This document shows positions 2,290 through 40,256 of a stretch of 64,000 nucleotides of DNA, piece after piece; position 1 is the stretch's first letter; each line of letters begins with the position of its first letter. The position numbers were made by a program, and so were the translations under genes. The stretch spans positions 10,049,660 to 10,113,659 of the forward strand of contig OZ316893.1 of assembly GCA_973895155.1 (NCBI GenBank), read 5' to 3'. This DNA comes from Marsupella aquatica. Lineage: Eukaryota; Plantae; Marchantiophyta. The notes under the pieces are model-generated. The model saw only the letters and a list, made by a program, of their open reading frames with translations. It was not told the DNA's origin and ran no database searches.

Positions 2290-2520
2290 ATGTCGACTTC
2301 TGAGAGTTTGGATATAGATTCCGACTCTGACTTGTCTTCCTCTGAGGGGGACATTCCTCCTCCCCCTCAACAGCCTCGAGCACCCCCTCCATTAGGCCCT
2401 ATTCCATGCTGGTGTCTTAGATGTAAAGGACTGGTGGTTCGTCAAGCGTGGCAGTCCATTGAACACATCGAAAACTATGGTCGACATGAGGGTGATTTAC
2501 TGGGATATTCAGCTCGCCAG
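2290..2520 (+). CDS. Shared first coding exon: transposase-associated Zn-binding domain (element 1)
   Basis: ATG at 2290 just after a TGGCAG acceptor. Acidic/Pro-rich start, then CWCLRC...EHIENYG (C-x-C-x2-C...H, transposase-associated domain type). Phase-0 donor CAG|GTATTG at 2520/2521. Confidence 0.8.
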
Positions 2521-5927: not shown

Positions 5928-6348
5928 TGTTGAGCATAGACGACGATCGCAACGGCAAGCCCATGAACCATCCAACGCACAATAGTCGACACAAGAGATA
6001 CGTGGTTCACCTCCTTGAGGCTACGTCCACGGGAACACACAAGAGAGCTTTACTGAACTCTAAGCCCGTCGGCTATACCGAGTCTCCACAGTGTAAGCTC
6101 TCCCTATCTCTCAAGTGGCTCCATAACAATGAGCCTTGGTTCTACCTCTCCAAGCACACATGCCTCTTATGATATAGTGTGCAACTTAGTTGTACCTAAC
6201 CACATAGTTGTACCTAATCACGTAGTTGTACCTAACCACATAGTTGTACCTAATCACGTAGTTGTACCTAACCACGTAGTTGTACCAACCCACGTTGTTG
6301 TACCAACCACGTCATACCTAACCTAGACGTAAGAGTAAATACCCAACA
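5928..6348 (-). repeat. Copia 3' LTR containing an 18-bp tandem array (TAGTTGTACCTAAYCACR, about 7 copies)
   Basis: Direct repeat of 12002-12422. Purine tract AAGGGGAAGAT adjoins it on the minus strand. Confidence 0.95.
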
Positions 6349-6539
6349 ATCTTCCCCTTGACTCTGGTCTAGGGGAGAGTAATACTGCCAATGTATATGA
6401 TCCCTCAGCGGGAAATTCTGGACAGAAACCAAACCGGTTTCCCTCTCTAACTAGAGCAAACCAGAACTAAGCCGTAGCCTAATACATAGGAATGAGGAAG
6501 AGCATATATCAGTAATTACAATGAATGTTTAAGAAAACT

Positions 6540-9500
6540 CTACTTGTGATGCAATTGCAAAACCTGCAATACGTCACGGTGTCTAGAGAAACTCTCCAAA
6601 GGAATCACTTTGGTAAATGCGTCAGCCGGGTTGAGTTTACCATCAATCTTGACTAGCTCAAACAAATTATCAGACACAGCCTGCCTGATAAAATGGTACC
6701 TGACGTCAATGTGCTTCACTCTGCTGTCCATCACCTGGTTCACAGCAAGGTGGAGCGCACTTTGACTATCACAATGGAGCTTCACATTCCCCTGTGGCAA
6801 TCCCATTTCAGTGATAAGTCTATCCAACCAAATCGCTTCCTTTGCTGCTTCCGCAGCTGCAACATACTCCGCTTCTGTAGTAGACTGAGCAATACACTTC
6901 TGCAAAGTAGACCTCCAACTTATGCATCCACCGCCAAGTGTGAACACGTATCCTGTTGTTGATCTCCTTCGGTCCAAATCTTGTCCATAGTCAGAATCTA
7001 CATAGCCAATCAATGATCTAGCATTCTTTGCATTCGCATCAAATAAAAGACCATGATCCACGGTACCCTTCAAGTACCTGATAATCCACTTCACTGCTTC
7101 CCAGTGTACCTTCCCTGGATTCGACATGTACCTGCTCACCTTGCCCATAGCCATGGCAAGATCAGGTCTAGTGCAAGTCATCAAATACATGAGACTCCCC
7201 ACTGCCTTGTCATATGGAACCTTTGACATCAACCCCTTCTCTGTGTCATCCGTAGAACATAACGCTGATGATAACTTGAAGTGTGGAGCCAACGGGGTAC
7301 TTACTGGCTTGCTATTCTCCATGTTGAACCTTGCAATTACCTTCCTCGCATAACTGCTTTGCGTCAACCATAGCTTGCCAGCCTCCAAGTCCCTAGTGAT
7401 CTCCATACCCAAAATCCTCTTAGCTGGCCCTAAGTCCTTCATCTTAAACTCTGCACTAAGCAGTGCCTTGAGCTTAACAATCTCAGACCTATCCTTGGCT
7501 GCAATTAGCATGTCATCCACATAAAGTACTAAAACAATGAACCCAAAGACAACATTCTTCACCGGTTTCAAATACACACAAGGGTCAAATACACTTCTGT
7601 GAAAACCTTGTGACCAAATCCAATCGTCAAACCGCTTGTTCCACTGTCTTGGTGACTGCTTCAACCCATACAAGGATTTCAGCAATCTGCAAACCAATTC
7701 CTCCTGTCCTCTCTTCACAAAACCTAGCGGTTGTCTCATGAAGATCACCTCTTCCAATGTGCCATAGAGGAAAGCTGTGACAACATCCATCTGATCTAGG
7801 AGCAGACCAAACATTACAACAAGTACACACAATAGTCGTATTGTAGAGTACTTAGCAACTGGTGAGAAGACCTCATTGTAATCCACACCTTTCTCTTGTG
7901 TGAATCCCTTTGCTACCAATCTAGCCTTGTAGACCTTCGATCCATCTCCTATGGAATTATCCTTCAGCTTGTAAATCCACTTGCTGTCCACCACTTGCTG
8001 ACCCTTAGGCAGCTTAACAAGCTCCCAAGTTTTGTTGTCCTTTAGTGACTGCATCTCCGTTTGCATTGCTGCAGTCCACTTCTGCTTCTCTTTTGAAGCA
8101 CTTGCCTCATGAAATGAAGAAGGTTCTCCTTCTTCCAAAATTAACGCATCACCCTCATCATCAGCTGTAAAATCATCCTCTTGCAGTTGAGATGAATCAA
8201 CCCACTGTCCATACCTTGATGGAGCGCGTACAGTGCGACCAGATGTTCTTCTAGCCGATGACTCCGGTTGATCTGCGTGTGCTGGTACAATTTGAAGCTC
8301 AACAGCATCCACTTGTTGCTCACCAGCATCAACAAACTCCTCTGGTTCCTCTGGCATAGGAACCAGCTCCATAATTGGAGCAACTCCTTCTCTCCGGTCA
8401 TGCACCTCATAACCAATCTCCCCCTCAATGAGATCCGGGATAGGAGATTTTCCTTTGTCAGTACGGGAGACCTGAGTATTCTCCCCCTCCTTCAATAATC
8501 TAGATTCATTGAAGGAAACATCCCTACTGACAACGAGCTTACAGGCAATAGGATCCCATAGCCTATAGGCTTTCACACCACTCTGGTACCCAAGAAAAAC
8601 ACATTTCCTGGAGGTAGGATCCAACTTGGTCCTATTCTGCTTTGGTGTGAGAGCATATGCATCACTTCCAAAAATTACCAAGCCATGATAGTCTGCTTGC
8701 CGCTTATAGCGCATCTCAAACGGCGTTTTGAAATTGATAGCACTAGAAGGAGAAAGATTTACCAAATAAGCTGCGGTATTGACAGCTTCTGCCCAAAATT
8801 CTTGTGGTAAACCTGATTGGCTCAACATACTCCGTGACCGCTCCAACAGTGTCCGATTGAGCCTCTCAGCGACACCATTCTGCTGCGGAGTATAAACTGT
8901 GGTGAGATGGCGAGTTATCCCCTGTTCTGAACAGTACTCTTCAAATTCCATTGAAGTGTACTCCCCGCCGTTGTCTGACCTCAGACTCTTCACCCTTGTA
9001 TCCAAACACTTGATCGTGTTTCCAGTCTGATTCTCCACCTGGGCCTTCCACTTCTTAAAAATGGACAAGACATCAGACTTATGCGTCATGAAATAAATCC
9101 ACACAAATCTTGAGTAATCATCAATAAATGATACATAGTACAACTTTCCAGAGTGTGAGGGAGTCGGGGATGGACCCCACACGTCACTATGTATGTACTC
9201 AAGAACCGCTTTGGAACGATGAGTTCCAACACCAAAAGCACGACGATGCTGCTTTCCAAGAATGCAATGCTCACAAAACTCTAATTTACAAGATTGCAAA
9301 TCAAAAATGAGTCCATTCTTCCGTAAGATAGCCAAACCCTTCTCACTCATGTGGCCTAGCCGTGAATGCCACAGTTGAGTCATCTCCTCGTGAGACTTGG
9401 TTACATTGGCCTCTCCACATACAGTATTGCCCTGTAACACATACAAATTCTTTTGTCTACTCCCCTTCAAAATCATTGTCTCTCCCGACCTGACTTGAAG

Positions 9501-9812
9501 TTCACCATCAATAACGCTCCATTGATGACCATTTGAATCCAACACACCGAGTGAAATCAGATTCTTATGCATGCCAGGTACATACCTGACTCCGGACACT
9601 ATGCGCACAGCCCCATCAAACATTTGAATCTTCACAGACCCAATTCCCTCAATTTGACAGGAGTGATCATTTCCCATCAGAACTGAACCGTTTGAAACAG
9701 AGTAAGAACTGAAAAACTCACGAATGTAACAAATATGAAAAGAGCAAGCACAATCAAGAATCCACACATCATCTGCTCTCCTAGATGACGTGTACAGGGC
9801 ATACCCCCGGCT
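6540..9812 (-). CDS. pol: Copia pol (protease, GAG-pre-integrase, integrase, RT, RNase H)
   Basis: WILDCACSFH, WHSRLGH..CEHC, FIDDYSR, LRSDNGGEY, QNGVAER, KARLVAKG, YVDDML, YVDSDY, KHIDVRYH. Open frame all the way back to the gag stop. Confidence 0.95.
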   Translation of the reverse strand, partial: SRGYALYTSSRRADDVWILDCACSFHICYIREFFSSYSVSNGSVLMGNDHSCQIEGIGSVKIQMFDGAVRIVSGVRYVPGMHKNLISLGVLDSNGHQWSVIDGELQVRSGETMILKGSRQKNLYVLQGNTVCGEANVTKSHEEMTQLWHSRLGHMSEKGLAILRKNGLIFDLQSCKLEFCEHCILGKQHRRAFGVGTHRSKAVLEYIHSDVWGPSPTPSHSGKLYYVSFIDDYSRFVWIYFMTHKSDVLSIFKKWKAQVENQTGNTIKCLDTRVKSLRSDNGGEYTSMEFEEYCSEQGITRHLTTVYTPQQNGVAERLNRTLLERSRSMLSQSGLPQEFWAEAVNTAAYLVNLSPSSAINFKTPFEMRYKRQADYHGLVIFGSDAYALTPKQNRTKLDPTSRKCVFLGYQSGVKAYRLWDPIACKLVVSRDVSFNESRLLKEGENTQVSRTDKGKSPIPDLIEGEIGYEVHDRREGVAPIMELVPMPEEPEEFVDAGEQQVDAVELQIVPAHADQPESSARRTSGRTVRAPSRYGQWVDSSQLQEDDFTADDEGDALILEEGEPSSFHEASASKEKQKWTAAMQTEMQSLKDNKTWELVKLPKGQQVVDSKWIYKLKDNSIGDGSKVYKARLVAKGFTQEKGVDYNEVFSPVAKYSTIRLLCVLVVMFGLLLDQMDVVTAFLYGTLEEVIFMRQPLGFVKRGQEELVCRLLKSLYGLKQSPRQWNKRFDDWIWSQGFHRSVFDPCVYLKPVKNVVFGFIVLVLYVDDMLIAAKDRSEIVKLKALLSAEFKMKDLGPAKRILGMEITRDLEAGKLWLTQSSYARKVIARFNMENSKPVSTPLAPHFKLSSALCSTDDTEKGLMSKVPYDKAVGSLMYLMTCTRPDLAMAMGKVSRYMSNPGKVHWEAVKWIIRYLKGTVDHGLLFDANAKNARSLIGYVDSDYGQDLDRRRSTTGYVFTLGGGCISWRSTLQKCIAQSTTEAEYVAAAEAAKEAIWLDRLITEMGLPQGNVKLHCDSQSALHLAVNQVMDSRVKHIDVRYHFIRQAVSDNLFELVKIDGKLNPADAFTKVIPLESFSRHRDVLQVLQLHHK

Positions 9813-10847
9813 TCATAAAACATACTCATCATTGAGTAAATCAGCTTCTCCATCAGCCCTAGCCACATTTGCCGATGAAGTTTCCGCTGCCTTTCCCTTA
9901 CAGTCTCGCTTGAAGTGTCCAACTTGGTTGCACTTCCAACATGTCACCTGCCTCCTCTGAGGGGATTTACCCTTGGACTTAGATCTGGATTTAGATCTAA
10001 ACTGGGTTCTACGGTCCCCAGTTGGTCGCTGCATACTCCTCCCACGGTTAACATTGAGGGCAGCATCAGATGATGAAGGCTGTGACGTGATGTGCATCTT
10101 CTGCTGAAGATCATCACTAAGCAGAGAACTTACCACGTCATTGTATGAAATGGTATCCCTATCACGATGCAACAACACTCGTGATAGGGACTGGTAAGAT
10201 GGAGGCAATGAACTAAGAAGCTGCAGAGCCTTCGTCTCATCATTCAAAGTCTCCCCAAGGTTTTCCAAGTCAATGACCATGTCGTTGAAAGCATCCACAT
10301 GGTCTTGCAACTTCGTACCAGATTCCTTCATTCTAAAACTCATCAGTTTGTAGGAAGTGTAGAGCTGGTTCGACAACTCCTTGCGGTGATACTTGCTCTG
10401 CAATTCCGCAAACAAGGACATGCAATCCTTATGTGCACCTAACTGCTTGATGATGGGAGGCATGAGATAGAGTGTAACACACCACACTCCCTGCTCCTGC
10501 ATGCGGTCCCATTGTTTCTCATCAACATCGTCTTCACGAGGGCTCAGCAGTTGGCCCATCCCTAACGCATAAAGCACTCCCTTCACCTGCTTCTCCCATA
10601 GCAAGTAGTCAGAGCGCCCATCATACTTTGTCACTTCATACTTGGGTCCCCCAAGCTTGAAAGTCCCCATCTTCTTCTTTACCGTGAGCTCCGGTAGTAG
10701 TACTGCTTCCTCCACCACACGCCGCACCAGTGATGGTATCGGTGTCACGTGCTCTTCCTCCTGCTCCTCTCTCTGCCCCTGAAACCTCCGCGGTGATCCT
10801 CGTGCTTCAAGTTCCACGTCTTCGAAAAACTCCTCCGAATCACTCAT
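9813..10847 (-). CDS. gag: Copia gag
   Basis: KYDGRSDYLLW, LLSSLPPSY, zinc knuckle CWKCNQVGHFKRDC. Ends in a TGA that is in frame with pol. Confidence 0.93.
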   Translation of the reverse strand: MSDSEEFFEDVELEARGSPRRFQGQREEQEEEHVTPIPSLVRRVVEEAVLLPELTVKKKMGTFKLGGPKYEVTKYDGRSDYLLWEKQVKGVLYALGMGQLLSPREDDVDEKQWDRMQEQGVWCVTLYLMPPIIKQLGAHKDCMSLFAELQSKYHRKELSNQLYTSYKLMSFRMKESGTKLQDHVDAFNDMVIDLENLGETLNDETKALQLLSSLPPSYQSLSRVLLHRDRDTISYNDVVSSLLSDDLQQKMHITSQPSSSDAALNVNRGRSMQRPTGDRRTQFRSKSRSKSKGKSPQRRQVTCWKCNQVGHFKRDCKGKAAETSSANVARADGEADLLNDEYVL

Positions 10848-11987
10848 ATGAGAAAGTCACAAAAAATGTTGTTTTTCACAACTTCTCAAAAAACTCGAAA
10901 CTCAACACCGCCGCGTAACCCACAAAGCTAGGAGTCCAATACTGAAAACCAAAATCAAAATTGAAATTTGACGGAAAAGTTATTCAAATTTCGGTCGAGG
11001 TGGGTAAAACCTTGGGAAACTCCCCCGTTTTGACCACCTCAGGGAATGACCGAAATACCAAGTACAACCCGTTGTCGGAATTGCGATGTGATTGGTGCGC
11101 TGCATTGCCAACTTCAATGGCTACGACCTTGCCGAAAAATAACCAAAAAAGTTACCGTTCGGCGGATGAAATCTTTGTCGGACGGTCAAAAAATAGCTCT
11201 CTGGTTTTTTGGAATATTCTATGACCCTTGTACAGTCCCTGTGGGAATTTTGGAAGAACAATCGAGGGGCTGACATGTGTCCTCGAACCCCCAAAACCCC
11301 CTACCACCCTTCGTCGTCGAAATCTGGTCGCGCGCGCAGAAAATACACACGGCAGAATGTACCCCTCGACACCAAACGCAAGATATCTCACTCGGGTTTT
11401 GACGAAATCAAGATCCGATTTCAGATTTGGAAACTAGACTCCGAGGCGATGAAGATCGATATAAGAAGCACCCAAAACGAGGAAAGAACGAGGGAGAAAA
11501 AAATTGGTAAAGATGACAGATTTCTCTCAATTGCCATAGCCAATTTCGAATCAGTTTTTCAAAGAGAAAAAAATGGTACCTTGTCAACAACGAATGTTGA
11601 TCAATTGCACTTGGTGCCGTCACCAAGTCCAACAAGGTAATTAATTTTGCTTAGCCTTCCTCTTTGCATCAAAGAGCCAATCCCGGACTCAAAAACAATC
11701 GTCTTGCCTCAATCTCTCCGTTGAGTCAAAACACTTGACGCTTCTCCCTCCGAGTCGATTGCCAACTTTCTTCACAAAATCCAGAACGACGAAAACTTAG
11801 ATCTCTCTGCACCACGAGCTCCGTTCAACGATTTCTTCACACCGTTAGAAAGCTCTTGCCCTGATCTATCCGTTGAGCCCATAAACTCCAAGTTCCATGC
11901 GATGGAACTCTGGAAAATCCACCAACACTCAACGCTGGAAAAACCGTCATGAAATCCCGTCACGAACACACGTCACCTCCCAAGCAT

Positions 11988-11999
11988 GCTCTGATACCA
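11988..11999 (-). promoter_or_regulatory. Primer binding site (initiator Met tRNA)
   Basis: TGGTATCAGAGC on the minus strand, 2 nt inside the 5' LTR. Confidence 0.9.
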
Positions 12000-12001
12000 A
12001 T

Positions 12002-12422
12002 TGTTGAGCATAGACGACGATCGCAATGGCAAGCCCATGAACCATCCAACGCACAATAGTCGACACAAGAGATACGTGGTTCACCTCCTTGAGGCTACGT
12101 CCACGGGAACACACAAGAGAGCTTTACTGAACTCTAAGCCCGTCGGCTATACCGAGTCTCCACAGTGTAAGCTCTCCCTATCTCTCAAGTGGCTCCATAA
12201 CAATGAGCCTTGGTTCTACCTCTCCAAGCACACATGCCTCTTATGATATAGTGTGCAACTTAGTTGTACCTAACCACATAGTTGTACCTAATCACGTAGT
12301 TGTACCTAACCACATAGTTGTACCTAATCACGTAGTTGTACCTAACCACGTAGTTGTACCAACCCACGTTGTTGTACCAACCACGTCATACCTAACCTAG
12401 ACGTAAGAGTAAATACCCAACA
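12002..12422 (-). repeat. Copia 5' LTR
   Basis: Near-identical to 5928-6348 (AACGGC vs AATGGC). Confidence 0.95.
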
Positions 12423-12427
12423 CATCT

Positions 12428-13469
12428 AGTGCGTGAGGTTGGTATTGCAGGCCCTGTACATTGTCGTTGGATGTACTGGGTAGAGCGGTACATGGGAGTG
12501 ATGAAGTCCTATGTTTCAAATCGCGCAAGGGTGGAAGGTAGCATTGCAGAGCGTCATCTTGGAGCAGAGAGCATGTTTTATTGTACAAACATTATTGCTA
12601 CACTTGATTCAAATGCTCCAAGCGGGTGGATAGATGAGGCATCAAGAGAAGCAGACTATGAGGATGACCGTTTGACAGGTGCAAAGGGAGAACGGCTTCT
12701 TGACCCTAGTGAGCACACTAAAATCACTGCATTCATGTTGTATAACTCTCCAGAGATTGTTGGGGAGTGGACCACATTTTATGAGGAGGATAAGCACAAT
12801 AGTCGACGACCACGCTTATTTCCCAAATTCCACATGTACATGAAGGGGAAGTTGTTAGAAGTGGATGCCTTGGTGGCTATTGGGGAGAGTGTATCACACT
12901 TCCCAATGGTGACTGATAAGTTGCGCACCTTGGTTCATGGACCTCTACTTACAGTTACAACCAGGACTGCCATGTGGTCCAAGGGGAGACACTTTCGTGT
13001 GGAACGACTTGATGACAAGAGGGCAGCTACACAAGATTGTGGGGTGATGGGTTGGTTCACCCAGGATTCTGTAAGTAGCAGATCTGACACAAATCCCATC
13101 CGTTCTACTATAGCTCACTATGGAAAGATAGAGGAGATCCTTGTTGTAAAATACCATGCGCATACAACATTGGAAGAGGTGGTGCTGAAGTGCAAATGGT
13201 TTTGGATGAATCTTGTTGGCCACAATCGAACATGTGAAGAGGATGCTTGCGGCTTCACACGACTGAAGACAGGGGCTGTCATCAGCTCAAATTGGAGGGC
13301 CTCAGATCCTTTTGCATTTCCTCATAATCTTGAGCAGGCATTCTATCTCCCTTATCCAGATGATCCTGAGTGGTCCATTGTAATGCCTTACATTCCACGA
13401 TCCCGATCCATAGTCCAAGAACAGCCAAATGTAGTTGTTGTGGAAGATTTGGAAAATGAGAACAACTAG
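12428..13469 (+). pseudogene. CACTA transposase, 3' part (DUF4218/DUF4216-like region)
   Basis: Removing the copia and one TSD restores HFLLHLVREVGIAGPVHCRWMYWVER. Also YGKIEEI, KCKWF, DPFAFP..QAFY. Confidence 0.9.
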
Positions 13470-16066: not shown

Positions 16067-16099
16067 GAGTAGAGTAGAGTAGAGTAGAGTAGAGTAGAG
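16067..16099. repeat. (AGAGT)n microsatellite
   Basis: About 6 pentamer copies, read directly. Confidence 0.85.
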
Positions 16100-18757
16100 A
16101 GGTCGGGGGGACAACTGCCTGTGTCACAACATGAACTCATTTGTCCAACTTGCACGTCTTGGTCTAATTTAACATTCACACTCTCACAGTCTGTAGTCTA
16201 CCCGGCTGTCTACTCAGTTCAGTGTACAAGAATCAAGTGCCTTAGTTTCATTACGATGCTACATGTCAATAATATGCTTGTCAGAGTGTATGCTTGGCTG
16301 TGCAAACAGACCCAGTCAAACAATTAATGCAGCAAACTGTTGTTGCTTACTGTTGGCAGCCATGTGGAAGATAGTAGCTTAGAGCAACACTCAACAATAG
16401 AGTTTCCAAGCACGCGGTAGGAAGACTAAATTTTGGTTGTATGTTTTCATTTGGTTCTACAAATCTCACATGCTTTTGATCAGATTGTCTTTTTTTCCCT
16501 TCAGAAGTGGTTGTTCTTTAAATTAGTGTTCCTTTGTCACCTCCGCCCTTGCTATTTGGGTGGATTGACTCATTTGTTGATCATGCCTCTCAGTATTGAG
16601 TCGTGTTCTTGTAACTCGTTGTGATTGGTAAGAGTTTTAATGCTCAACTTCTGGTTTTGTTCCTTTGTGTGGTGCAGTATGCTGCGTAAAGGCGTGGAAG
16701 GCCAGGACTATTCTCACATGCTGTGTGAAGGCCAAGACTATTCTCAGTGGTAAGTGCTGCTACATGATTATACTGTTGGACATCCTTAAGTCTCTATCGT
16801 TGTTTTGGAGCCTTTGTTAATTGGAAACTTCTTGTTATGGCATATCTGTTTGAATATATACCCTTTGATATTGGCTATGTGAGCACATGATGAAGTGTGA
16901 TCTTGGATGTGTTTGGCAGTCTAGGAAGGTGGATCGAGCTACCCCTTCTCATCTCAATAACTGGCCTAAACGTGGCATATATCCCTTTTTCTAATCCCCA
17001 TCAGCGCGGAGTTGTTGAGGCTTGAGCTGGTCTGAGCAGGGTTGCTGAGCTAACTTGAAGTGCACTTGATCATAGGTAACCTGCCCTCAATCTCTGTAGT
17101 CCAGAGTGTGCTGAAGATTGCCATAGCAAGATTTGTCCTATTGTGCTTGACTATTCCTAAAGGTCATTTTATGTTCATTAACAATAACCAAAGTCTAAAC
17201 TTGGAGGTCACAACTAAAAGTTTATGGAGGATTGTAATATCCCCTTCTTCCCACAATCCTAAATCAATCCATGAATCCTTCAAGTAAGCTGTTACGGACT
17301 GTACACCTTATCAAAGAAATCATCCCTGAGGCCAGCAGCTAAGTCGTTACGGCCAGTGCATTTCCTGAATCCGTTCCATGTTGTGGAGTCCCAATAAAAT
17401 CACTCCACTCTAAGTCAGCTATCATTCCAGCAATCCCACTTTATGAAATGGATTGCATTTTATCCCTACCAGCTCAAACCATGATGTGCAATTCAACTGT
17501 CTCTCACATCGTGTCCCCTTGGCCTCTCTGTGGTCAACTGAGCTAGCCTTCCTTTGAGGCAATACATTTATCAATTGCTGCATGAACCATGGCTTGTGCT
17601 GCGAAGCAAGTGACCTCGATTATCCTCCCAGTCGGCCCTGTCTCTGAAATAGATTTTCATGATTTCATATAGCACAAACCATGGTTTGCACATCTTTATG
17701 TTAAGTCTAATTCCACCACTCTGACCTCAACTCACCTTCCTTTGAGGCATTACATTTTCCAAACCTGGTGCCTTGTACCTATCGTGGCACAAACCATGGT
17801 TCGTGCTGTGAAGGGGTAATATGTGACTCCCACTATCACAACTCACATCTGGACTTGGCTGTCCTTCCAGCCAACAATTTTCTAGCAAATGGATTTACAT
17901 TTGTACTTGCAGCACAAACAAGGATTTGCACATCATGCATGTCCACCCAGTCCAATTTCTAATCTTAATCACTACAACACTATGCACCTCTTTTGCGAAC
18001 CACCACCCTTCGCATCATACAAAGGAAACAAAATCCAAAATACCCAATTTGCAAACTTACTCGCATCGCAACGTCTTCGCTACTTCCCATCTCAAATTCT
18101 TCGCAAACGGCCCTTTGCAACTACTTCGCAACTTGCGATTCTAAATACGTCGCAACATCTCCACAACGTTGCGACGGCACTGTTCTTGCAAATATTGAGA
18201 AACGACAAATTTCATTATTTTGCGAGAACAAATGAATCGCTCGTGTTGCGATAACATTTACATCGCAATTTCCGATGTTAAATTTCTCTGTAACTTGCGA
18301 TGCAAACAAACTCGTAAGATTGCGAGAAGCGGATAACCGCTTTGTTGCGAAGGCATTTAACTCGCAAACGTGTGGAGAGGAAGTCTTCGCTAGGGTTTTG
18401 ATTTAGACAACATCGCAAGTGTTGCGATGCGTTTCTCCTCGGAATGGTTGCGATACGTTCACCGTGGGTCTTTGAGATGGGGGTTGGTTCTCAAAAGCTT
18501 CGCAAAATGTATATTTCATGGGTTTTTGTGTATTTGGGTTAGGGTGAGGGTGAGGGAGACCATTCATGGGTTTTGAAGGAGGGAGGAAAGTGATGTTGAC
18601 CCAGTCTGCCGCAATTAAAATGGCATTACTGAAAAAGTACAAAAGTTACAAAATGGAAGGGTAAAAACCCTTAGGTAAAGTGCCACGGCCATGCATGCTG
18701 ATCGCTATACATGTGAACTCGATGTAAGTGCTCTAGCTACAACTTGTCTACATCAAG

Positions 18758-20854
18758 CTAGAAAGGAGTGTTCCTGCCCCTCCTTGCCTTCTTCCCCTTG
18801 GCCTTCTCCTTGCCCTTGTGTGCTCTTGGGGGGGGTGCAACATGGACTTCCTCCTCCTCTTGGTCACCCTCGGGGTCACCCTCATCCTCATCCTCATCCT
18901 CATCCCCACCTCCACCGCCCTGGCTTGCCGCGCTACCACCCCCAGCACCACTGGAACGTGCTGATGCAAATGACTGGTCTCCAGTGCTAGTTGGCCTGGC
19001 TTGAGTAGCAGGAGCTGTGCTCCCCTCCCCTGTCCCCTCCACATCCTCATCACTACTATCGGTGCCACCCTCGGTATGGGAGTCACCATCCTCCCCTCCC
19101 TGCTTCCATTAGCAAACCAGGGTGTCTGTTAGTCTCATATTCTTTACAAGTGTGAACAAAAGAGATATTCATTCAAAATTGCAATGAATGTAATAACCTA
19201 AAAATTCTCACCAATAATTCATCAACTTGCTGAAAGAGACGCTCCTTCCCATGTTTCTGGCCCACCTCCATCTCAGCCGCCGTAATCTTCCTCTTGTACC
19301 TCTTGTACTAAGCCAAAACAAAACCAGCACAATTGGGTTAACACCAACCCATAACCCGATTCACATGGCTTCTAAAAATTAGGGGGTTTGTTGGGGCTGG
19401 TGGGGTGGTGCATCAAGGTTTTGGGGTTATGGAGGGTGGCATATATGGGGAAGACCCTCAAAGAACACTTAAACGATCGGAAAATTTAAAAATTCAAATT
19501 TTTGAAATTTTGCGAAGGCGCCAACTTCGCAATCATAAGGACAATTACGTTTGCGAAGCTGGTTGCGATGCGAACGTCTTTGCAACGCCTTCGCAAACGT
19601 AAGCAAAAAAAGGGCATAATAAGGTTTGCGAAGGATTTGTGAAGCTACCCGCATCGCAAATGTATCGCAAACTCTGTCATGGCAAAAACCCGAGAGGGAA
19701 GCAACTGTACGTGACCTAATCTGACACAACAAGTCTAATTGTAACTACTTGGTGGAAATGCAAGAAAGAGTTGGCTCATTGCAGGTGTGTTGGAATAGGA
19801 ATTGGAGTAGCAAGAAGTCAAGGGAGGAGAGGGAGGTGCACTCACGAATGCTGCTTTGAGGCCGGGGAGGCCACCTTGACCCAGCCTGTGGGTGATGTTG
19901 GGCTTGTCTCGGACTCGCTCAGCTGCCTTCAGGAACTTGTTGGGTGGATCGCCTACTTCTGCTACAACCTGCTGGAGCTGGGCTACCTTCTGCTCCATCA
20001 CCTTCAGGTCCCGGTCAGACTTCCCGGCCTCCTTTGCCCTTCGAGCCTTTGCCAGCTTCTCTGTGAAATCATTGAGGAGCCTGGCTGCTTTCAACTTCAC
20101 CTCTGTCTGGTAGAAGGCCTGCCAGATATCTTCTGAGAATTGCAGCGGCCTCTGCAAATTCCTATACTCCTCCAAATCTCTAAGGTGAGACCTGATCTTC
20201 ATTCTATCATGGTATCTAGCTTGTGACATGGAGTTTGAAATTTTGTCAACAAGCCACTGTGAATCCATCTCTCCTCCATTTCAAAATGCATCTTTCACCT
20301 GATTGATGACTCGCTTCTGCTCTGCCTTTGAGCGAGTGCCCCACTCGACTCCTCTTGCAAAATTTGTGGATACAATGTGCCTGATTGTGCTCTTGGCCCC
20401 ATTGTAAGCAAGCTCGGTGGGAATCCCCTCATCCTCTAAAGTAATCAGAGGCAGCTTCCTCCTTGCTGCCTCCTTCTTTCTTTGCTCCTCCCTCTGTTTC
20501 CTGATCAGGTCTCTCTCATCTTTCCTCCTCTTCTTTTCCAATGCTTGAGGCGAGAGCACTCCAGCCTGAGCTCTCTCGTCCCTCTTTCGCTTCCTCTCAG
20601 CAGCCACCTGCTCTGCTGCCTTCCTTGCATCCTCCTCCACTGCTGCTTGCCCTGCAGTGAGACCTGCTTGCAAGGCTTGGCCCAGAAGGGCACTCAATGA
20701 TGCCAGCCCTGCTGGACTGGTGAAATCAATTTGACTCAACTATGCAACCAAAAAATGCTCATCCACAATCGCCTTCAATCGATCCCCCCCCTCGGTTGCC
20801 TCCGCTGCTGCCAGAAGCTCCTCCATCACCACCAGTCCCCTCTTCGCTCGCCAT
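18758..20854 (-). pseudogene. CACTA ORF2 / TnpA-like gene (element 2), multi-exon, disrupted
   Basis: Probable ATG at 20854, apparent frameshift in a G run near 20790, in-frame stops at 20740-20742 and 20281-20283. THRLGQGG motif, then GTGAGT donor at 19845. Probable last exon (about 19100-18758) has an acidic DEDEDE tract and a basic KGKKARRGR NLS-like end. Downstream exon boundaries are uncertain. Confidence 0.62.
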
Positions 20855-21559
20855 CGCTCCGCCCTTGCCCTCGTTGCTCTCCTCAGGCCTGAATGAACTG
20901 AATCCGCCTTGTCCGCGCTCGGCAATCCATAAGGATTCAAAATATTGGGCTTTGCGATTCGTTTCGCATCGCAATTTGCGATGCATCGGCCTTCGCAAAA
21001 AGCTTCGCAAATTCTATCTTTGCGAAGCTTCAAGATTTGCAAAAGCCTTCGCTATTTGGTTTTGCCATAACCCCCGTCTCGCATGCGTATTTGATGTGTT
21101 GTTAGGGATACTAAGGGGGCTTATGAACATTACATGGGGTAGATGTAGAGGATTATGTTGCATTTTAGTGGGATGTGATGAGATAAGGATTGGGGGGGTT
21201 AGAAAATTGAAGGAGTTATATTGCAGGGTAAGAGGAGGGGGTTTGGCCTGGTTAGGGGAGGGTTTCTTTTGTGAAGGTTGGGCTTAGATTGGCTTAGATA
21301 CGAGGGGTTTTATGTTTTGGGTTTGCAGGGGGGTTTTATTTATGAAGGTTGGGGTTATATGTATTGGAGGGTAAGAGCTAGGAGGGGTTTTATGTTTTGG
21401 GTTTTGGGGTTTAGGCCAACTTAGGAGGGTTTGAAAGAGAGGTTTCAGTTTTATAGTATCTTGGGTTACTTTTATGGTATCTTAGGAGGGTAACCAAGAG
21501 GGGTGGCATATAATTATGGTAGAGAGAAGCATAGGATGGTTGAAGGGAATTGACCATTT

Positions 21560-22630
21560 AGGTTTTTGCTAACTTCATTGGCTTACGCTTTTAGAGTTCC
21601 CAAGGGTCTATGGTGGGTTTTTATTGCATGACACTCACCTTTCACTTGAAGCGGGATGAGGTTTTGGTTTTTATGCTAACAATTGAGGGAAATCCCATGT
21701 AATCATGATCCAATGCAGGACCATCACTGCTTCCTCAACTTTTGTCTAATGCATATGCATTGTGGGAACCCGGACATCTAAAAGGTATATTTAAACATGT
21801 ATGTTAGCAGGGTTTGATAAAGAGATTGTTCATAAACCTTGCCCTTCTTTGTTGTGCAAGAATATCTATATGCACATGTTTGGGGGTCTACAACTTGAGA
21901 GAAGCTAATGGCTATCCAAACTTACTTTTTTGTTTCCAGTATTTTCCTCGTGCTTCTAGATTCAGCTCATGTTCAATGAGCCACACGACCTACAAGCACT
22001 ATTGAGTCCGGATCTCATTCAGGTAATTATTGTCCAACTTCATTCTGGGCTTAGGCCTTTAGAGTTTTCCCAGGGGTCTAGGGTGGGTTTTTATTGCATG
22101 ACACTCACCTTTCACTCGAGGGGGGATAAGGGTTTAGGGTTTAGGGTTTTATGCTAACAATTGAGGGGAAAACCCATGTAATCATGATACAACGCAGGGC
22201 CAACACTACTACCTCAACTTTTGTCTAATGCATATGCATTGTGGGAACCCGGGCATCTAAAAGGTATAACATCATGTATACAGTCAATGTTGTTAGTACA
22301 GATTTTTATGCTTGCCCTTCTTTGTTGTGCCATGATATATGTGGGTAAATGTCTAAGATTCCACAACTTGACGGCTGCTAATTACCATCCAAACTTACAT
22401 TTTGTTTCCAGTATTTTCCTCCTACTTCTAGATTTGGCAAATGTTCCAAAAGCCACGTGACCTATAGGCACTGTTGAGCCCGGGTCTCATTCAGGTAATA
22501 ATCTAACCTCACTTAGGACATAGGGTATTACAATTTTCCCAAAGGTTATAATGTGGTTTCTTCTTGCATGACACTCACCTTAATTTGGGTTTCATGCTAA
22601 CAAATATAAAAGGGTAATAAAACCCCATGT
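21560..22630 (+). repeat. 472-bp tandem duplication (2 copies plus a partial third) containing an 83-nt putative 5'UTR exon
   Basis: TTTCCAG|TATTTTCCTC...CTCATTCAG|GTAAT at 21940-22022 and 22412-22494. TTGCATGACACTCACCT occurs three times. Confidence 0.8.
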
Positions 22631-22737
22631 ATAAACCAACCTAATTGTTTTTTGAGTTCATTTTTTTTAAAATCGCTTTATATATGGCCTAATTTTTCCT
22701 AATCATGCCCTACATGCAATGTAATGTGGCAGTGGAT

Positions 22738-22962
22738 ATGTCCTCTTCCTCTGAACTATCCAGTAGTGAGTACTCCTCCGATGACGATATACCCCCTCCT
22801 CCTCAGCCCGAGGTTACTGGTCCTCGTGGTCCACCCCGAAGACTTTGTGACTGCACCAGATGTGTGGGCCAAATTTCTCAAAAATCTTATGTGTGTGCTC
22901 AACATATTGAGAGATATGGACATCATAGAGGTCTTACTCCCGGGGCTTCTTCATCCCATATG
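22738..22962 (+). CDS. Shared first coding exon: transposase-associated Zn-binding domain (element 2)
   Basis: ATG at 22738 after a TGGCAG acceptor. CDCTRC...QHIERYG. Phase-0 donor ATG|GTAAGT at 22962/22963. Confidence 0.8.
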
Positions 22963-23073
22963 GTAAGTTTGTTTCAATTGATTGCCGTTCTTTACTGTTA
23001 TTTTTAGAGGTGAATCAATGTTTACACATATGGTTTACACATTTGGTTGTTTGTGGGTGTTTGCATGGAATAG

Positions 23074-23904
23074 GGATCCAGTATGCGTAGATTGGTGACA
23101 CCACCACCCTATGTCCCATCACAAGGAGTTTTAGATGCTATAGGCAATGCACTTTCACAAGCCTTGGGTTTGGGAATTAGTACCAGTCATGGGACAGAAG
23201 GGGAACACCGTCATGTGCCCACTGAGACACGAAGACCCCGGTCCAGGCCCCAATCCAACAGGAGGCCACGAGCACCCAATGACCCATCCAGAACACTAGT
23301 TCAGGGTAGGTGGGGTGTTTGTTCATTCACTGGCAAGTGTGCCTCTATCATCAAGGATTGGGAACCTATCACTCTTGGCTTGCCTTATTTTACAGATTTT
23401 GATGAGGAGATTGTGGTTTGGGGTAGACGTTGGATTGTGAAAACTTCCACACTTGGAGAGAGACATGGATATGGAGTATTTGCTTGTGAGGATATCATCA
23501 TGGATGAGGAGGGTGGGTCAAGTGTTCGTGGTAGAGAGGGTCCTACTTTGTTCCCATACGGTGGACCCATCTACAAGAGAAGACATTGGAACATGATCCT
23601 TGCACAACATCCTGAGTGGAAAACATATGCTCTAGAGATGGATACTTTTGATGGTAGCACTAGAAGGTATAGTGAGCAGCGGGTGATAGATGGTGATCCC
23701 ATACGTAATGAGAATATTGCTGGTTTCATAAATAGTACTGTGGGGACTCGGCCCAAGCGTAGGGCCAATTGTGAGTGGGTTTTTACTGATGGTCCAATGC
23801 CGGCACCATATGGCACGACATATCATAAGGACCATTGCTTAGATCTTGCTACTAGGACCATTAGAGCAGGAGATGAGTTATTCACACACTATGAGTGGGA
23901 TTAG
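23074..23904 (+). CDS. SET/PR-like lysine methyltransferase exon inside the CACTA transposase intron (element 2)
   Basis: Acceptor AATAG|GGA at 23073/23074, phase 0. GYGVFACEDI, FPYGG, IDGD..NIAGFINS, ANCE, IRAGDELFTHY. No stops. Confidence 0.85.
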   Translation, partial: GSSMRRLVTPPPYVPSQGVLDAIGNALSQALGLGISTSHGTEGEHRHVPTETRRPRSRPQSNRRPRAPNDPSRTLVQGRWGVCSFTGKCASIIKDWEPITLGLPYFTDFDEEIVVWGRRWIVKTSTLGERHGYGVFACEDIIMDEEGGSSVRGREGPTLFPYGGPIYKRRHWNMILAQHPEWKTYALEMDTFDGSTRRYSEQRVIDGDPIRNENIAGFINSTVGTRPKRRANCEWVFTDGPMPAPYGTTYHKDHCLDLATRTIRAGDELFTHYEWD

Positions 23905-24115
23905 GAAATCATGTCCTTTATCCTCTTGCACCTATTTTGGACTTCCCATTTACTATTATATATATGGCCTTTGGGCTCATTTTGGAGTAATAAGGTTTTA
24001 GCCCATGCATTTACTTTAATTCTTAATGTCTTGAATGAATGGTGTTAAGTCTATTTTAATTTGTTGTACTTGGTCAAATATACATGAGGAGGTTTTTTGG
24101 TTGTAATGTGCATAG

Positions 24116-27100
24116 AATGCGCAACCATCTCAACAAATGTTACCACGAAGGTTGAGAGCAACATATCGGGAGATGGGTATGCTAGAAGAGGGAGAACCAT
24201 CAGAGGGTGATTCCTCATCAAGTAATGATGTAGGTGGTGCTGATGAGGAAGCCGCACCTCGGACTGATGACCAGGTCATGCATGATCAAGATAGAGCCAT
24301 GGATGACTTCATGGTTGATTGGTTTGGTGCCGATGTTGAGGATGATGTGCCTCACATTGGTCATGAGGTTGGCCCTTCAAATGACCCACGGCCACAACAT
24401 ACTCCAGAGGGACAACAACAATGGAAAGAGGCAGAGGAACATGCTCGAACACCTATTTTTGAGGGTGCTCGGTTGAGCCGTCTTTCTGCCATATTGGGGC
24501 TCTTGAACATTCAAGCCAAACACAAGACAAGCAATTCTATGTTATCAGACATATTTGAATATTGTCATGACTTGATGTTACCCTCGGAGAATGTGTTGCC
24601 AGGGACCTAGAAGGATGCAAAGAAGGTTCTCTCATCCATTGGTATGGATTACCATATTATTCATGCCTGTGTGAATGATTGCATGTTATTTCACGGGGAT
24701 ACAGCCCATATCACAGAATGCACAGTGTGTCATGAGCCACGGTATGAGCCAAACATGCTAACCCAGAAGGTACCAAGGAAAGCAGTTCGTTGGTTCCCCA
24801 TAATTCCTCGCTTGTTGCACATGTATAGATGTTCTGACTTGGCCGAGTTGATGGTATGGCACAAGAAACATCGTTCGGAGCCCGGTGTCATGCGATTACC
24901 AGTTGACTCTCCTGCTCATAAACATGTGGAATCAACATGGCCAGATTTTGAGCGTGACCCTCGGCATGTGCGACTGGGGTTGGCATCAGATGGAGTTAGC
25001 CCTCATTCACTTGGAGGGAAGGGGAGACCTACATCGGTCTGGCCTGTGGTTCTCATGAATTACAACCTTCCACCATGGTTGTCCATGAAAAAGGGTTTTT
25101 TGTTGCTATCTTTGATTATCCCAGGGCCAAAGAAGGTGAAGAACATGGACACCTATTTGACATTACTGGTTCAGGAACTCCAGAAATTATGGGAAGGAGT
25201 ATGGGCATATGATGGTCGAAAGACTACAGGGGGTACCCCACGGGTTTTCAAACTCAAAGGGGTTTGTATGTAGACCATGCATGACTACCCAGGTAAGAAC
25301 TTTGTTGTTTAAATGCATCATATTCTAATGCATGGTATCCCCTCATTTCCATGTGCTAATCCTAACATAATGTGTGTTTATATGACCAGGATTTGGCTTT
25401 GTGAGTGGGTTGCAAACCCAAGGCTACAAGGCTTGCTCCACTTGTGGCCCAAGCCTTGGTGATGTAGCCAAGTATTCATCACATCTTCGCAAGATTGTTT
25501 ATCTTGGGCATACAAAGTTTCTTCCAATGGGACATTAGATGAGGCGTGACCCACTACTATTTTCCTCTATTGATATGCCCTTTGGTGACGAGCGTGATGT
25601 ACCTGAGCCAACAACTTTTACACACTGGAAAGACATGGCTGCAAGAGTGGCAGACCCAGAGGATCCCATGCAATTTGACGGTAGTGGCTTGACAAGGTGG
25701 AGTATATTAACCACTTTGCCCTATTGGGGTGAGTTGAAGATCCGCCATCTATTAGACCCCATGCACATTGAGGGAAATGTGGGAAAGGCTTTGATAAAGG
25801 CTTTCTATGGAGAGAAAGACACTAACTTCAGGGAGGCTTGTGAGGATCTTGAGATGCATCCAGACGTGTGGGTCATAAGTGATCCTATCACGGGGATCGA
25901 GCATCGACCTTCAGCTCCATGGGTGCTTCCTATTGGCCAGAGAAGGGAGTTTCAGAATCGCATAGGAGACATGCGGTTTCCTACTGGTTATGGTGCCAAT
26001 CTCCGAAAGGCCTTTGGGATGGAGGACAATCATAAGTGGCCAAGGTATCTCAAGACACATGACTACCATAGGTTATTGCAGCACATATTGCCTGTGGCCA
26101 TAATAGGTTTGGCAAGTGAAGAAGTGCAAGATGCCCTTTGGTCATTGGGAAAACTATTGAGATGGGTATGCTCTAAGGAGATATATACTGATGAGATCCC
26201 TAGGATGGAGGTTTTGGCAGCAGAGGTGGTATGCAAGTTGGAGAAGGCCCTTCCTCCTTCCTTTTTTGATTGTCAAGTGCATTTACTTGTTCATCTTGTT
26301 CATGAGGTGGCCATTGCAGGTCCTGTGCATTGTCGGTGGATGTATTGGCTAGAACGATACATGGCAGTGTTAAAAGGTTATGTACGTAACCGTGCACGGG
26401 TTGAGGGAAGCATGGCTACAGGATACTTAGCAGCTGAGAGTATGTTCTATTGTAGTAACATATTGGCCACAATTGATTGTACCTCTCCCCGTACTTGGGT
26501 AGAGGAGAGGGAAGATGAAGAGGATCGTTTAACAGGTGCTAGGAAAACTCGCATGTTGACACCAGTGGAGGTGAAACAACTGACCACATTCATGTTGAGT
26601 AACAGCACTATCATGGAAGAATGGAAGGATTTCTATGAGGATGCCAAAAGTAACAGCACAAGACCAAGGATTTTTCCAAAGTACCTTGACTATATGAAGG
26701 AGAAGTTAGTTGAGGTGGATGACATGGTGGTCAGGGGAGAGAGTGTATTACATTTTCCGGCTATCACAGATGATGTTCGTACCATTGTTCATGGTCCCTT
26801 GAGAGTGGTTACAACAAGGACAGCAATGTGGACACAAGGAAGACATTTTAGGTGATCTCCATCTACCTTAGTAACCTTTGATTTGAATCACTTGGTTTAA
26901 TTTAATTCATTTGTAATACAAGCACGTATATTGAAGAGGCAGATTCTTGGTGTGTTCAATTAATTGGAATATGTTTGTGTCTATTTTTGTGTAACATATC
27001 CTTATGGTTTGATGGATTTTAGGATTTCTTCCCTTGATGAGAAGAGGGGTCATACCTTTGATTGTGGAGTTCAAGGACAATTCTCTCAAGATTCCCGCAG

Positions 27101-27509
27101 CAGTCGCCATGACACAAATATTATTCGAGATGTTGTGCCACATTATGGAAAGGTAGAAGAGATTCTAGTGATATCTTATGATGCACAATCAAAGTTTGAA
27201 GAGTATGTCTTCAAGTGCAAGTGGTTCAAAGTGAACCTTGCAGGTAACAATCCTACTGTGGTTCAAGATGAGTGTGGATTTACACGACTGAAGACGTCTG
27301 CCACTAGTTTCCAGCCATCTCATTGGCAAACATCAGAGCCGTTCACTTTTCCAAGTCATGTGGAACAATGTTTCTATATTCCATACCCCCCAAACCCAGA
27401 GGAATGGTCACTTGTCATCACATATGTGCCACGGTCTCGTTCAATCGTTGGGGAAAAGCCTGATATTCTGGTTGTGTCCCAACCTGAAGATGATGAGGAC
27501 CAAGTTTGA
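24116..27509 (+). pseudogene. CACTA Tnp2/TnpD transposase (exons 24116-25292, 25390-26851, 27023-27509)
   Basis: Phase-0 acceptor ATAG|AAT GCG. Same motifs as element 1. In-frame TAG stops at 24608, 25271 and 25536. Two GT-AG introns keep the frame. Confidence 0.92.
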
Positions 27510-29567
27510 GGGGTCTGTGTTTGTGGATATATAGCTACACGGATATATAGTTAGATTTGATGATATGAAGATTTCTCTTCTCGGTAGAATGGAGAAATAT
27601 GTGCTTCTCAATTATCAATAAACTTATGTTTTGTAAGTATATCATTTTCAAATGTTGTTTTCTATATCTCCCATCCCTACCCCACACTCACCACACCTTT
27701 TGGTAGACTTTATGCAAAGAAAACTCATGTTGCTTGTAGTCCTCTATCCTCCATGCTTTCCTAATCCCCCCCTAGCTGTTCTCCTTATTACTTGTACCCA
27801 CCTCCCTCCTCCTTTCTTTCATTGTCTGTCCCTCTTATTAAACCCTCCTTCCTCCTTCCTCTCCTTGTCCCAACCCCTGGCTTTCTATTTCAACCCTATA
27901 CTTTCCTTACTTTCCACCCCTGTCCCCCACTCTTACCTATACAAGCTAGCTTCTCTCCTCCCTCCTAAACCTATACCCTTAAACCTCCCTCATTTCCTTG
28001 TCCCTCTCTAAACCAATACCCTCCCTCCTTTCCTTGTCCCTCTCTAAACCCTAAACTCCCTCCTTTTTATTTTCACTCCCTAAATCCAAACCCTCCCTAA
28101 AACTATATCTACATACCCTTCCTCCTCCCTCATTTCCTTGTGCCCCCTAAACCTGTATCCTCCCTCTTGGATCCCTTCGTTCCTTGTCCCTCCTAGCCCC
28201 ATTCCCTTCCTCCTCCTTTTCATTGTCCCTCCCTAAAAATTACATGTATCCACCCTCCTTTACCCTCCCTCCCCAATCCCATTCCTTTTCCACCTCTTTG
28301 AAGCGCTCATAATATTTTGCGAAACATCTTGCGAAACCCCTACACCCGCAAACTCATCGCTACATTTGCGATACTTAACTGCTCCCTAATTGCCATCATC
28401 CCCTCATCGCAAACTTCCGAAGATACCACCATCTCAAAGTTGCGAAACCAAAACATTCACAAAATGAGACCCTAGACAGGCACAGGATTTGCGAGCCTAT
28501 TACTATCGCAAGTTAGCCATATATTCCACAAACATCGCTCATTTGCGAGACAATAAGACTCGCAAAATATTTTGAGATGCTTAAATATTCGCAACCATTT
28601 AGTTTTCCGGCGCATCTCAATGAATTTGCGAAGCGGTAAAGATCGCTAACGTGTTCAATGGTAATTGCTTCGGAAATGTTTTGCGATACCTGAAGTGTCA
28701 TAAAATGTTGCGATGGTCTAAGTTTCGCAATTATGTGTTGCGATGTGTGTAGATTTGCTAAGTGCGATGCGTATCGTATCGCAAGTTTAGCGATGAGATT
28801 AATCTTGCAAAGCTTTCTTCCTCTTGTAAAACGCCTTCGCAAAATTGGCAAATATGTAGTAGTGAATGAAGCTCAATTTTGCTTTCAAGGGCATGAACCA
28901 TGGTTTGCTCTGAAGTTTATCTTCCTAGTCAATTTTTCTAGACCTTGTTGCACAAAGGGACCTATTGATATCCGAGCCTTATTACTTCATGTTCATTTTG
29001 ATTGTTAGTGTTGCCATTCATTTAACGTGAAAGTCATATCATTTGCAGTGCAAACCATGGTTTGCACTACTGAGAATAAGTATCACAAGCCCTCATTGCA
29101 CGAATCTTGGTTTGCAGTATCCCCATTGATTTGTCCTGAAGTTCATTCCCTGTAACCATTTGCAAAGCAAACCATGGTTTGCAGTACAAAGAATAAATAC
29201 CAGTCACAGCTAGCTATCTTGCACGAACCTTGGTTTGCACTGTCCCAGTAGTCTTTGATTCAATTCATTTAGATTCAAAGCTAAATATTATTCCATGAAC
29301 CTTTGTTTGCACTATCCCTAGTCATCTTTGATTTCATCTAGATTTAGAGCTTGCAGCATGAACCATGGTTTGATGATCTACATTTTGCCAGAATCCAAAC
29401 TACTCTATGCTGTCCCTGGGAGAAAATTAAGTCAAACATTTCAAAATATCTGGTTTCTTTGAACATTCAACATGTTCTTTAAAGAATATCCTTGACACAT
29501 CTTGCCGACAGTATTCTTATGATCAAATTTGTTTTTGTTGTGAAGCAGAGCGAGAACGCACATAGTC

Positions 29568-39758: not shown

Positions 39759-40008
39759 GATATCAATTTTATTGTACTCTGCTATTCCCTTTCAAAATGG
39801 GTAGTCTGGGCTAGTCTAGGGCTAGTCTCTTCAAAAGCAAGAACTGGGCTGAGAGAGCTGGGCGGTGGGCCTGACATAGTGAAAAGAGGATAGGATAGGA
39901 ATTCACCTTACAGTGAATCTCATGGTGGCCAAAGCCATGACGAAAGAATCAAGTGGCCTCCAAAGCCATGACGAAAGGAACATAAGTTACTGTACATGAC
40001 TCGGATGG

Positions 40009-40117
40009 AAGGGGCAACCATATGATAAACAAGGGGCAATCATATGATAAACTAGGGGCCACCATGTGATAAACAAAGGGCAAACATATGATAAACAAGG
40101 GGCAAGCATATGATAAA
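40009..40117. repeat. 22-bp minisatellite, 5 copies (AAGGGGCAANCATATGATAAAC)
   Basis: Head-to-tail copies with no spacers. Confidence 0.85.
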
Positions 40118-40256
40118 TCGTGTTGCTTGGGAATGTGTAGTTTTTTAGGTCGGTAGCTTAATTATATCGCTGACGACAATCAAACGAAATACTCCAGTGG
40201 AGTGGTGATTCTTCCCAATGGCAACAACAGAGGAGAACTTTGACGAAAGCATGGTC

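Follow-up and report, generated by a model that had tools for sequence, protein, structure and literature searches.

An exon for a SET domain in an old bryophyte lineage of CACTA transposons: layout, selection and a possible protein-lysine methyltransferase

The stretch of liverwort DNA analysed here, called the window, spans 64,000 nucleotides of Marsupella aquatica (assembly GCA_973895155.1, contig OZ316893.1, positions 10,049,660 to 10,113,659 of the forward strand) and holds two strongly diverged CACTA/EnSpm transposons, referred to as element 1 and element 2. Both have the same exon order, in which an exon with a Cys/His module comes first, an exon for a SET domain second and the transposase exon third, and the words at their splice sites match. 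The analysis supports the proposal of a preliminary description, made from the sequence alone, that the SET exon is an old, selected component of a CACTA clade: it is under purifying selection, both copies fall in one clade, and the SET and transposase trees are compatible.

Element 2 (17970..28864, no strand assigned) is a full-length, dead copy of 10.9 kb. Its termini, CACTACAACA at 17970 and TGTAGTAGTG at 28864, are of the CACTA...TAGTG type, with terminal inverted repeats of 10 bp (1 mismatch) and a 3-bp target duplication, AAT, at 17967-17969 and 28865-28867. Its subterminal short repeats occur in both orientations. The motif TCGCAA is clustered at the left end (17993..18506, no strand assigned) and again at 19509-19671, 20951-21025 and 28316-28843; TCGCAA/TTGCGA is found 50 times in the element, 0 times in 14280-17969 and once in 28865-43500. 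The right end of element 1, at 14278, is of the CACTG type, and its subterminal motif is a different one, ATCGGA, with 23 copies, so that the differences in termini and repeats first described between the two elements are real; the target duplication of element 1 is uncheckable because its left end falls outside the window.

The genes of interest lie on the plus strand. In element 2 the first coding exon (exon 1, 22738..22962) has 75 codons, an acidic/Ser stretch followed by a CxCxxC-x13-H pattern that is present in Riccia members of the family too, and a ratio of nonsynonymous to synonymous substitution rates (dN/dS) of 0.29. It ends in phase 0 with GTAAGT next. A predicted GT..AG intron of 111 nt (22963..23073), whose acceptor AATAG ends at 23073, leads to the SET exon (23074..23904), a stop-free frame of 276 codons with its own stop, in which a linker precedes a core of ~200 amino acids starting at 23290. 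The AT-rich spacer that follows (23905..24115) is predicted to serve the SET form as its 3' untranslated region and the transposase form as the 3' end of its long intron. Behind the acceptor CATAG/AATGC at 24115/24116 stand three transposase exons, with Transposase_21 (24116..25292), CxxC and DUF4218 (25390..26851), and DUF4216 (27023..27509; coding pattern 0.85/0.92/0.63), the Pfam E-values being, in this order, 4e-35, 1e-34 and 3e-8. The intron before the last exon is missing from element 1. Three in-frame stops, at 24608, 25271 and 25536, interrupt the transposase as first reported; those at 24608 and 25271 appear private to element 2, since other copies in four public runs have TGG there.

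Element 1 has counterparts of all these parts, likewise on the plus strand: a first coding exon (2290..2520), a SET exon (2631..3593) and a transposase (3702..13469) into which a long terminal repeat (LTR) retrotransposon has been inserted at about 5932-12422. This insertion, at 5911-12422, is of Ty1/copia type, its LTRs being 97% identical with an 18-bp tandem array in each. The splice words of element 1 are CAG/GTATTG at 2520, AATAG at 2630 and ATAG/AATGC at 3701, the same three sites as the donor at 22962 and the acceptors at 23073 and 24115 given in the preliminary description, all of which hold. The acceptor words are the same in the two elements, as had been said, but related loci keep only ATAG/AAT, and the bases that follow vary.

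The layout is kept in related loci as well. Of 26 taken from a metagenome scan, most are of Sphagnum type, judged by their resemblance to named proteins. In 16 of the 26 the transposase exon begins 142-152 bases past the last matched SET codon, with ATAG/AAT before it in 15 of these 16; among the other ten, one ends on the acceptor word, six break off too soon and the SET of three is shortened by insertion or rearrangement. Exon 1 is present in 10 loci, its donor in 11 and the second open reading frame (ORF2) in 6. The first intron measures 111-118 nt in 11 related loci, and in 5 of the 11 its length is not a multiple of 3. In public gene models (models, not reads) from Sphagnum and Calypogeia, exon 1 is connected to SET exactly where the junction is predicted. 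Later transposase introns vary between families, and the fixed part of the layout is therefore the part around SET.

Two non-coding motifs upstream are predicted leader exons. Motif A (22233..22266, plus strand) ends in a GT donor-like site, has a duplicate at 21754, and recurs at position 1861 in element 1 and in loci L003, L004 and L021. Motif B (22465..22500, plus strand), the nearer one, ends in CAG/GTA and has a duplicate at 21993, 15 of 19 bases in common with position 2131 of element 1, and one other match in the window at up to 5 mismatches; it is found in 9 of the 10 exon-1 loci, the tenth being incomplete. Since leader motifs lie upstream in both elements, exon 1 is probably only the first coding exon. 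A tandem duplication of ~470 bp (21595-22581, two and a part copies) doubles both predicted leader exons of element 2.

The general layout of CACTA elements has been described (PMC4158355), and the canonical ORF1 opens with a transposase-associated domain according to PMC8978399. The Cys/His module of exon 1 is likely this domain, and the SET exon therefore likely lies in the first coding intron of the transposase as an alternative last exon.

The SET cores of elements 1 and 2 are 47-48% identical over ~200 amino acids, compared with 36% for the linkers and 59% for the transposase cores; the cores align and the linkers do not, as had been noted. PF00856 is matched at 30.0 bits by element 1 (E 7e-7), whose core is 71% identical to that of the Calypogeia protein P0001, and at 22.4 bits by the core of element 2, equal to the gathering cut-off of 22.4. 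It is found in 56 of 60 family members at E<=0.1, and SET is the only domain that Pfam finds in those 56. The SET is minimal, no pre-SET, post-SET or reader domain accompanying it, and the N6-adenine DNA methylase PF01555 is absent from the 60 members scanned. A search of the PDB by sequence gave no match for the single protein, and the best profile match had an E of 0.085.

The AlphaFold model of the 204-residue SET core is confident (predicted local distance difference test, pLDDT, 89; predicted template modelling score, pTM, 0.85) and has a SET fold of no clear subfamily. Its best structural matches form a tie: Set1 (Z 12.1; root mean square deviation, rmsd, 2.7 over 124 aligned residues), SET8 (11.7), EZH2 (11.7) and SET7/9 (11.4), with SET8 ranked first by Foldseek. 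Among the matches listed, 50 of 50 VIA rows and all Foldseek rows appear from their titles to be SET or PR domains. GxG and YxG have roles in cofactor binding and the active site. The family retains GxG, PYxG, the Asn of the NH motif and ELxxxY; across the 60 members GxG is conserved in 57, N148 in 51, N160 in 59, E196 in 60 and the final Tyr in 54. By the motif definitions given in PMC3980110, the C-terminal ELFTHY matches the ELxFDY type with its final Tyr, and the SET protein of element 2 terminates two residues past this Tyr. The His and Cys of RFINHxCxPN and the pre- and post-SET flanks are not found, so the family stands outside SUV39, ASH1/Set2, TRX/Set1 and E(z), and outside the canonical subfamilies in general.

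Against relatives with unsaturated synonymous sites the SET dN/dS is 0.25 (bootstrap 0.15-0.38; 0 of 1000 resamples >=1). In the 22 of the 26 loci that offer 100 codons or more, the median is 0.26 and the maximum 0.32, and four shorter loci give 0.28-0.48, all of these comparisons including the element-2 branch; two comparisons without the window give 0.30 and 0.35, each with 0 of 1000 bootstraps >=1. The direct comparison of elements 1 and 2 proposed at the outset is usable in direction (proportions of synonymous and nonsynonymous differences, pS 0.72 and pN 0.38) and uninformative in size because the synonymous sites are saturated. Between close copies, 11 of 17 differences listed in the SET exon are synonymous. 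An overlapping or antisense reading frame was considered as a source of SET conservation and is ruled out by at least 9 stops in each of the five other frames. The transposase is more constrained (dN/dS 0.08-0.14), SET evolving faster. The synonymous rate (dS) of SET is 0.58 (0.41-0.83), whereas the transposase exon next to it in the same locus has 1.27 (0.93-1.95; 23290-23901 against L002). Swapping of the cassette among families or additional constraint at the nucleotide level could account for the lower value.

The preliminary description also contrasted the stop-free SET exon with the lesions elsewhere in element 2. A rate of 3 stops per 3120 coding bases leads one to expect 0.8 in the 831 nt of the SET exon, so that none would occur with a probability of ~0.45; moreover, stops per 1000 aligned residues in the 26 related loci are 4.7 for SET and 4.9 for the transposase (tblastn segments, frameshifts not separated). 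For both reasons the contrast carries no weight. Dead copies lose SET and transposase alike, which points to selection on active elements and argues against domestication by the host. In the SET of element 2, two missense changes that seem to be unique to this copy affect conserved positions: G becomes E at 23711, and V becomes D at 23843. At the latter site, 1 of 60 family members has D.

The profile search returned 61 proteins, and all 15 with an organism name are from Sphagnum, Calypogeia fissa or Riccia sorocarpa. HMMER over 1.84 billion representatives gave 108 matches at E<=0.001, and the 60-sequence profile 75; one match, the long repeat protein P0150, proved spurious. In a tree of 60 rows without an outgroup, both window SETs fall in one clade (99/99), element 2 with Sphagnum and Calypogeia sequences (100/98) and element 1 with a different Calypogeia sequence (100/99). 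Three Riccia gene models (P0097, P0132 and P0140, the last placed by likeness) have divergent SETs, 36-46% identical, fused to Transposase_21. Across six lineages the identities of SET track those of the transposase (Mantel rho 0.86, 2 of 720 permutations), and quick trees of the two are compatible. The deepest SET branches may sit in other elements. On a deep branch P0112 of Calypogeia fissa has a different architecture, with Cys/His repeats before SET and a weak DUF5763 match (E 0.09). DUF5763 is linked to giant viruses.

The search for the nearest SET outside transposons bears on whether the exon is a neutral passenger or the result of two independent captures of host genes, of the Pack-CACTA type. 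Capture of gene fragments by CACTA elements is documented (PMC8978399). Against this, dN/dS lies far below 1, the two copies are in one clade, the trees are compatible, and among the ~75 family sequences inspected there is no canonical host SET, no close host relative and no host donor gene; neither matches to independent host genes nor a loss of purifying selection on the SET core appeared. We regard capture as very improbable.

Beyond bryophytes there are leads only. In language-model features of the 343-residue Sphagnum homologue P0002, SETs of giant viruses and haptophytes make up the named clusters that come next, and among viral models those of brown-algal viruses are best, at ~20% identity. 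Scans of viral and prokaryotic contigs, whose reach is close relatives only, gave 30 and 27 pattern matches, with 0 confirmed. Within bryophytes, the SET cores of named Sphagnum and Calypogeia proteins are 77% identical, those of two Calypogeia families 43%; the terminal word of element 2 is common to loci L005 and L007, and its first intron is alignable with that of L005 (78%). Old families together with moss-liverwort transfer would fit these observations, a possibility offered as a lead. A broader picture is rather doubtful as a whole: a bryophyte CACTA clade with its own histone methyltransferase, one whose SET family is separate and may descend from giant viruses and onto which the zinc module of the transposase is spliced, such that splice choice decides between jumping and rewriting chromatin, with horizontal transfer between peat moss and leafy liverwort.

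The remaining gene of element 2 is ORF2, whose first coding exon (19846..20854, minus strand) has a start and donor set by eye, with more exons predicted leftward. The lesions previously reported in it consist of two in-frame stops (20740-42 and 20281-83) and a probable frameshift near 20800, called by eye. It is 29-33% identical to ORF2 of element 1 and ~72% to those of related loci, with a dN/dS of 0.14-0.18. Its predicted structure is weak (pTM 0.25), and a fold search returned generic coiled-coil matches, which say nothing for or against a TnpA-type tandem helix-turn-helix (HTH). A predicted complex of ORF2 with the exon-1 module scored 0.00, which is no evidence in either direction.

We favour the reading that a CACTA lineage of bryophytes has long had the SET exon as a gene of its own, which purifying selection maintains and which apparently descended along with the transposase. 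On this reading it likely encodes an active protein-lysine methyltransferase, produced by a predicted alternative choice of last exon, which would mark histones on the element so as to keep it expressed and mobile. We put the probability of this reading at about 0.5. One promoter and the short non-coding leader exons would give a transcript carrying the Cys/His first coding exon. Splicing of exon 1 to the near acceptor at 23073 would yield a 351-residue protein of exon 1 and SET, ending at the stop at 23904, and splicing to the far acceptor at 24115, with the SET exon skipped, would yield the transposase. The common exon 1 would place the same docking module on both proteins, and ORF2 would be a TnpA-type binder of the TCGCAA repeats. 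Targeted in this way, the methyltransferase would mark histones on cognate elements against silencing, an activating direction.

Several observations weigh against this reading, some of them concerning its layout. Both splices are predicted from genomic sequence, not observed: the proteins found in the exon-1 search include none with exon 1 joined straight to the transposase exon, and contigs of public runs show no joint at the predicted sites, which is uninformative about splicing. PF13963 matches exon 1 below threshold in 2 of 19 proteins, both relatives (E 0.011 and 0.031), with none for the window's own exon 1, and the match is gone after exon trimming (0 of 17). In element-2-type transposase exons a Met is in frame at codon 8 in 16 of 16 loci, and a separate transposase start is therefore possible in these types. 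Independently of function, exon 1 might thus belong to SET only, the transposase being made from its own promoter or from Met8. The retention of Met8 in element 2 as well as in the 16 loci, and the lack, among the proteins found, of one joining exon 1 to the transposase, favour such an arrangement; however, element 1 has Val in that place and its first Met at codon 15, past the conserved LPR, while the seven codons ahead of Met8 are free of stops in 15 of 16 loci and follow the conserved AG in phase 0. CACTA transposases, moreover, usually start with a Cys/His domain according to PMC8978399. We hold a separate transposase start to be unlikely.

Other points concern the enzyme. The NHxC motif reads NST (GFINST), with Ser for His in 55 of 60 members, and there are no post-SET cysteines. 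The missing His, together with a SET dN/dS of 0.25 against 0.08-0.14 for the transposase, would suit a catalytically dead SET fold retained as a reader of histone tails or a decoy; yet the positions of the S-adenosylmethionine pocket and the final Tyr are conserved, and the same His is missing, as aligned here, from a bacterial SET methyltransferase of known structure. A dead fold is quite improbable in our view. For an active methyltransferase, the tie in fold between activating (Set1/MLL, Set2/NSD), repressive (EZH2) and H4K20 (SET8) enzymes makes substrate and direction unreadable.

The enzyme could be active on a non-histone substrate (its own transposase, ORF2 or a silencing protein of the host) and tune transposition. 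SET7/9 and SET8 have non-histone substrates and are among the top fold ties, the minimal SET has no pre-SET, post-SET or reader domain, and a shared first exon would put the enzyme beside the transposase. The top structural matches, in contrast, are mostly histone-bound enzymes, though this mirrors which structures are solved, and a non-histone substrate seems to us a minority possibility. Alternatively the mark could be repressive and damp the element itself or defence genes of the host. The chlorovirus vSET acts on H3K27 and is repressive, EZH2 ties for the best fold (Z 11.7), and giant-virus SETs are the nearest outside clusters in language-model features; many Marchantia transposons carry H3K27me3 according to 10.1101/827881. 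The element-borne regulators known in the superfamily activate, however, and self-silencing is harder to select; we consider a repressive mark distinctly unlikely.

Two further points touch the history of the exon in the reading we favour, that of an old methyltransferase gene inherited with the transposase. Two comparisons of near-identical copies give a SET dN/dS of 0.55-0.61 with intervals that span 1, though this is expected of dead copies. The congruence test spans six lineages; paralogs stand in as proxies for two of its Riccia SETs, and no outgroup of CACTA elements free of SET is included.

Other features of the window surround element 2, in which an Rfam scan gave 0 matches. The element appears to be inserted in another repeat (17476-17810 and 28891-36500) with AACCATGGTT palindromes in 9 exact copies. 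Long open reading frames stand beside these palindromes at 29544-30899 (with IIGGQHTV and without a Pfam match), 30942-32324 and 33250-35037, and one at 35364-35966 is NIF phosphatase-like. That at 29544-30899 we take, by eye, to be ParB-like. In red-algal Plavaka elements PAG3 is described as a ParB protein next to inverted-repeat arrays (bioRxiv 10.1101/2025.02.11.637652). A CACTA-type right end at 43479-43498 differs from the left terminus of element 2 by 1 mismatch in 14; no SET, transposase or TCGCAA cluster is nearby, and it possibly belongs to a non-autonomous element. The sole evident host gene in the window, called by eye, is a multi-exon UDP-glycosyltransferase-like plant gene at 47140-49142 on the minus strand.

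Transposons with SET genes are known from several groups. A close parallel is PAG2 of Plavaka, also of the EnSpm superfamily, a long-retained SET accessory gene with a proposed role in chromatin modulation; it is, however, a separate gene in a three-gene cassette, with SET fused to an N6-adenine methylase (bioRxiv 10.1101/2025.02.11.637652), whereas the SET of the window stands alone, flanked by coding exons 1 and 2 of a plant-type Transposase_21 gene, the former of which it is predicted to share. HarbingerS and Phytophthora MuDR families have taken up SET genes (PMC12730594, citing Kojima and Jurka 2014), and like proto-Helentron-Pi they are described as DNA transposons with a SET histone-methyltransferase-like gene, though they belong to different superfamilies and live in different hosts. 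For the Helentron SET a similarity of 50% to Clr4 is reported (PMC4067079), whereas the present family is without a close canonical relative. Compared with Set1, SET8, EZH2, SET7/9 and giant-virus SETs, it has a like fold (Z 11-12, rmsd 2.4-3.1 over about 125-134 residues) and the motifs GxG, YxG and ELxxxY; it differs in its low identity (17-29%), in NST for NHxC, in the lack of a post-SET and in long insertions. A land-plant CACTA element with a SET exon was not found among the top-ranked papers of the literature searches, although Repbase and preprint supplements could contain entries; unnamed accessory domains are mentioned among 962 Repbase Spm proteins (bioRxiv 10.64898/2026.08.24.746577).

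TnpA and VANC, treated in the same preprint, are precedents for anti-silencing by factors that elements carry themselves. Maize En/Spm TnpA-TnpD and Arabidopsis Spm1/Spm3 TnpA belong to the same superfamily, have clusters of subterminal motifs and, as described there, obtain both a regulator and a transposase by alternative splicing of a single unit. In that account TnpA is an HTH protein that binds DNA without being an enzyme and depends on host demethylases, whereas the alternative product here has the fold of an enzyme, and ORF2 forms a divergent gene of its own. The target given for Arabidopsis Spm1 TnpA, CCVTCGCAAA, resembles the TCGCAA(A) of element 2; with so short a motif this may be shared ancestry or chance. 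Among SET-carrying DNA transposons, the predicted shared exon would be the distinctive feature. The known plant anti-silencing factors VANC and TnpA are described as non-enzymatic, and the SET genes of other transposons as putative or predicted. Sphagnum species with sequenced genomes have many intact copies, relatives occur in liverworts, the protein is small and modelled with confidence, and just one splice switch is predicted, all of which makes it directly testable in a land plant whether transposons write their own histone marks.

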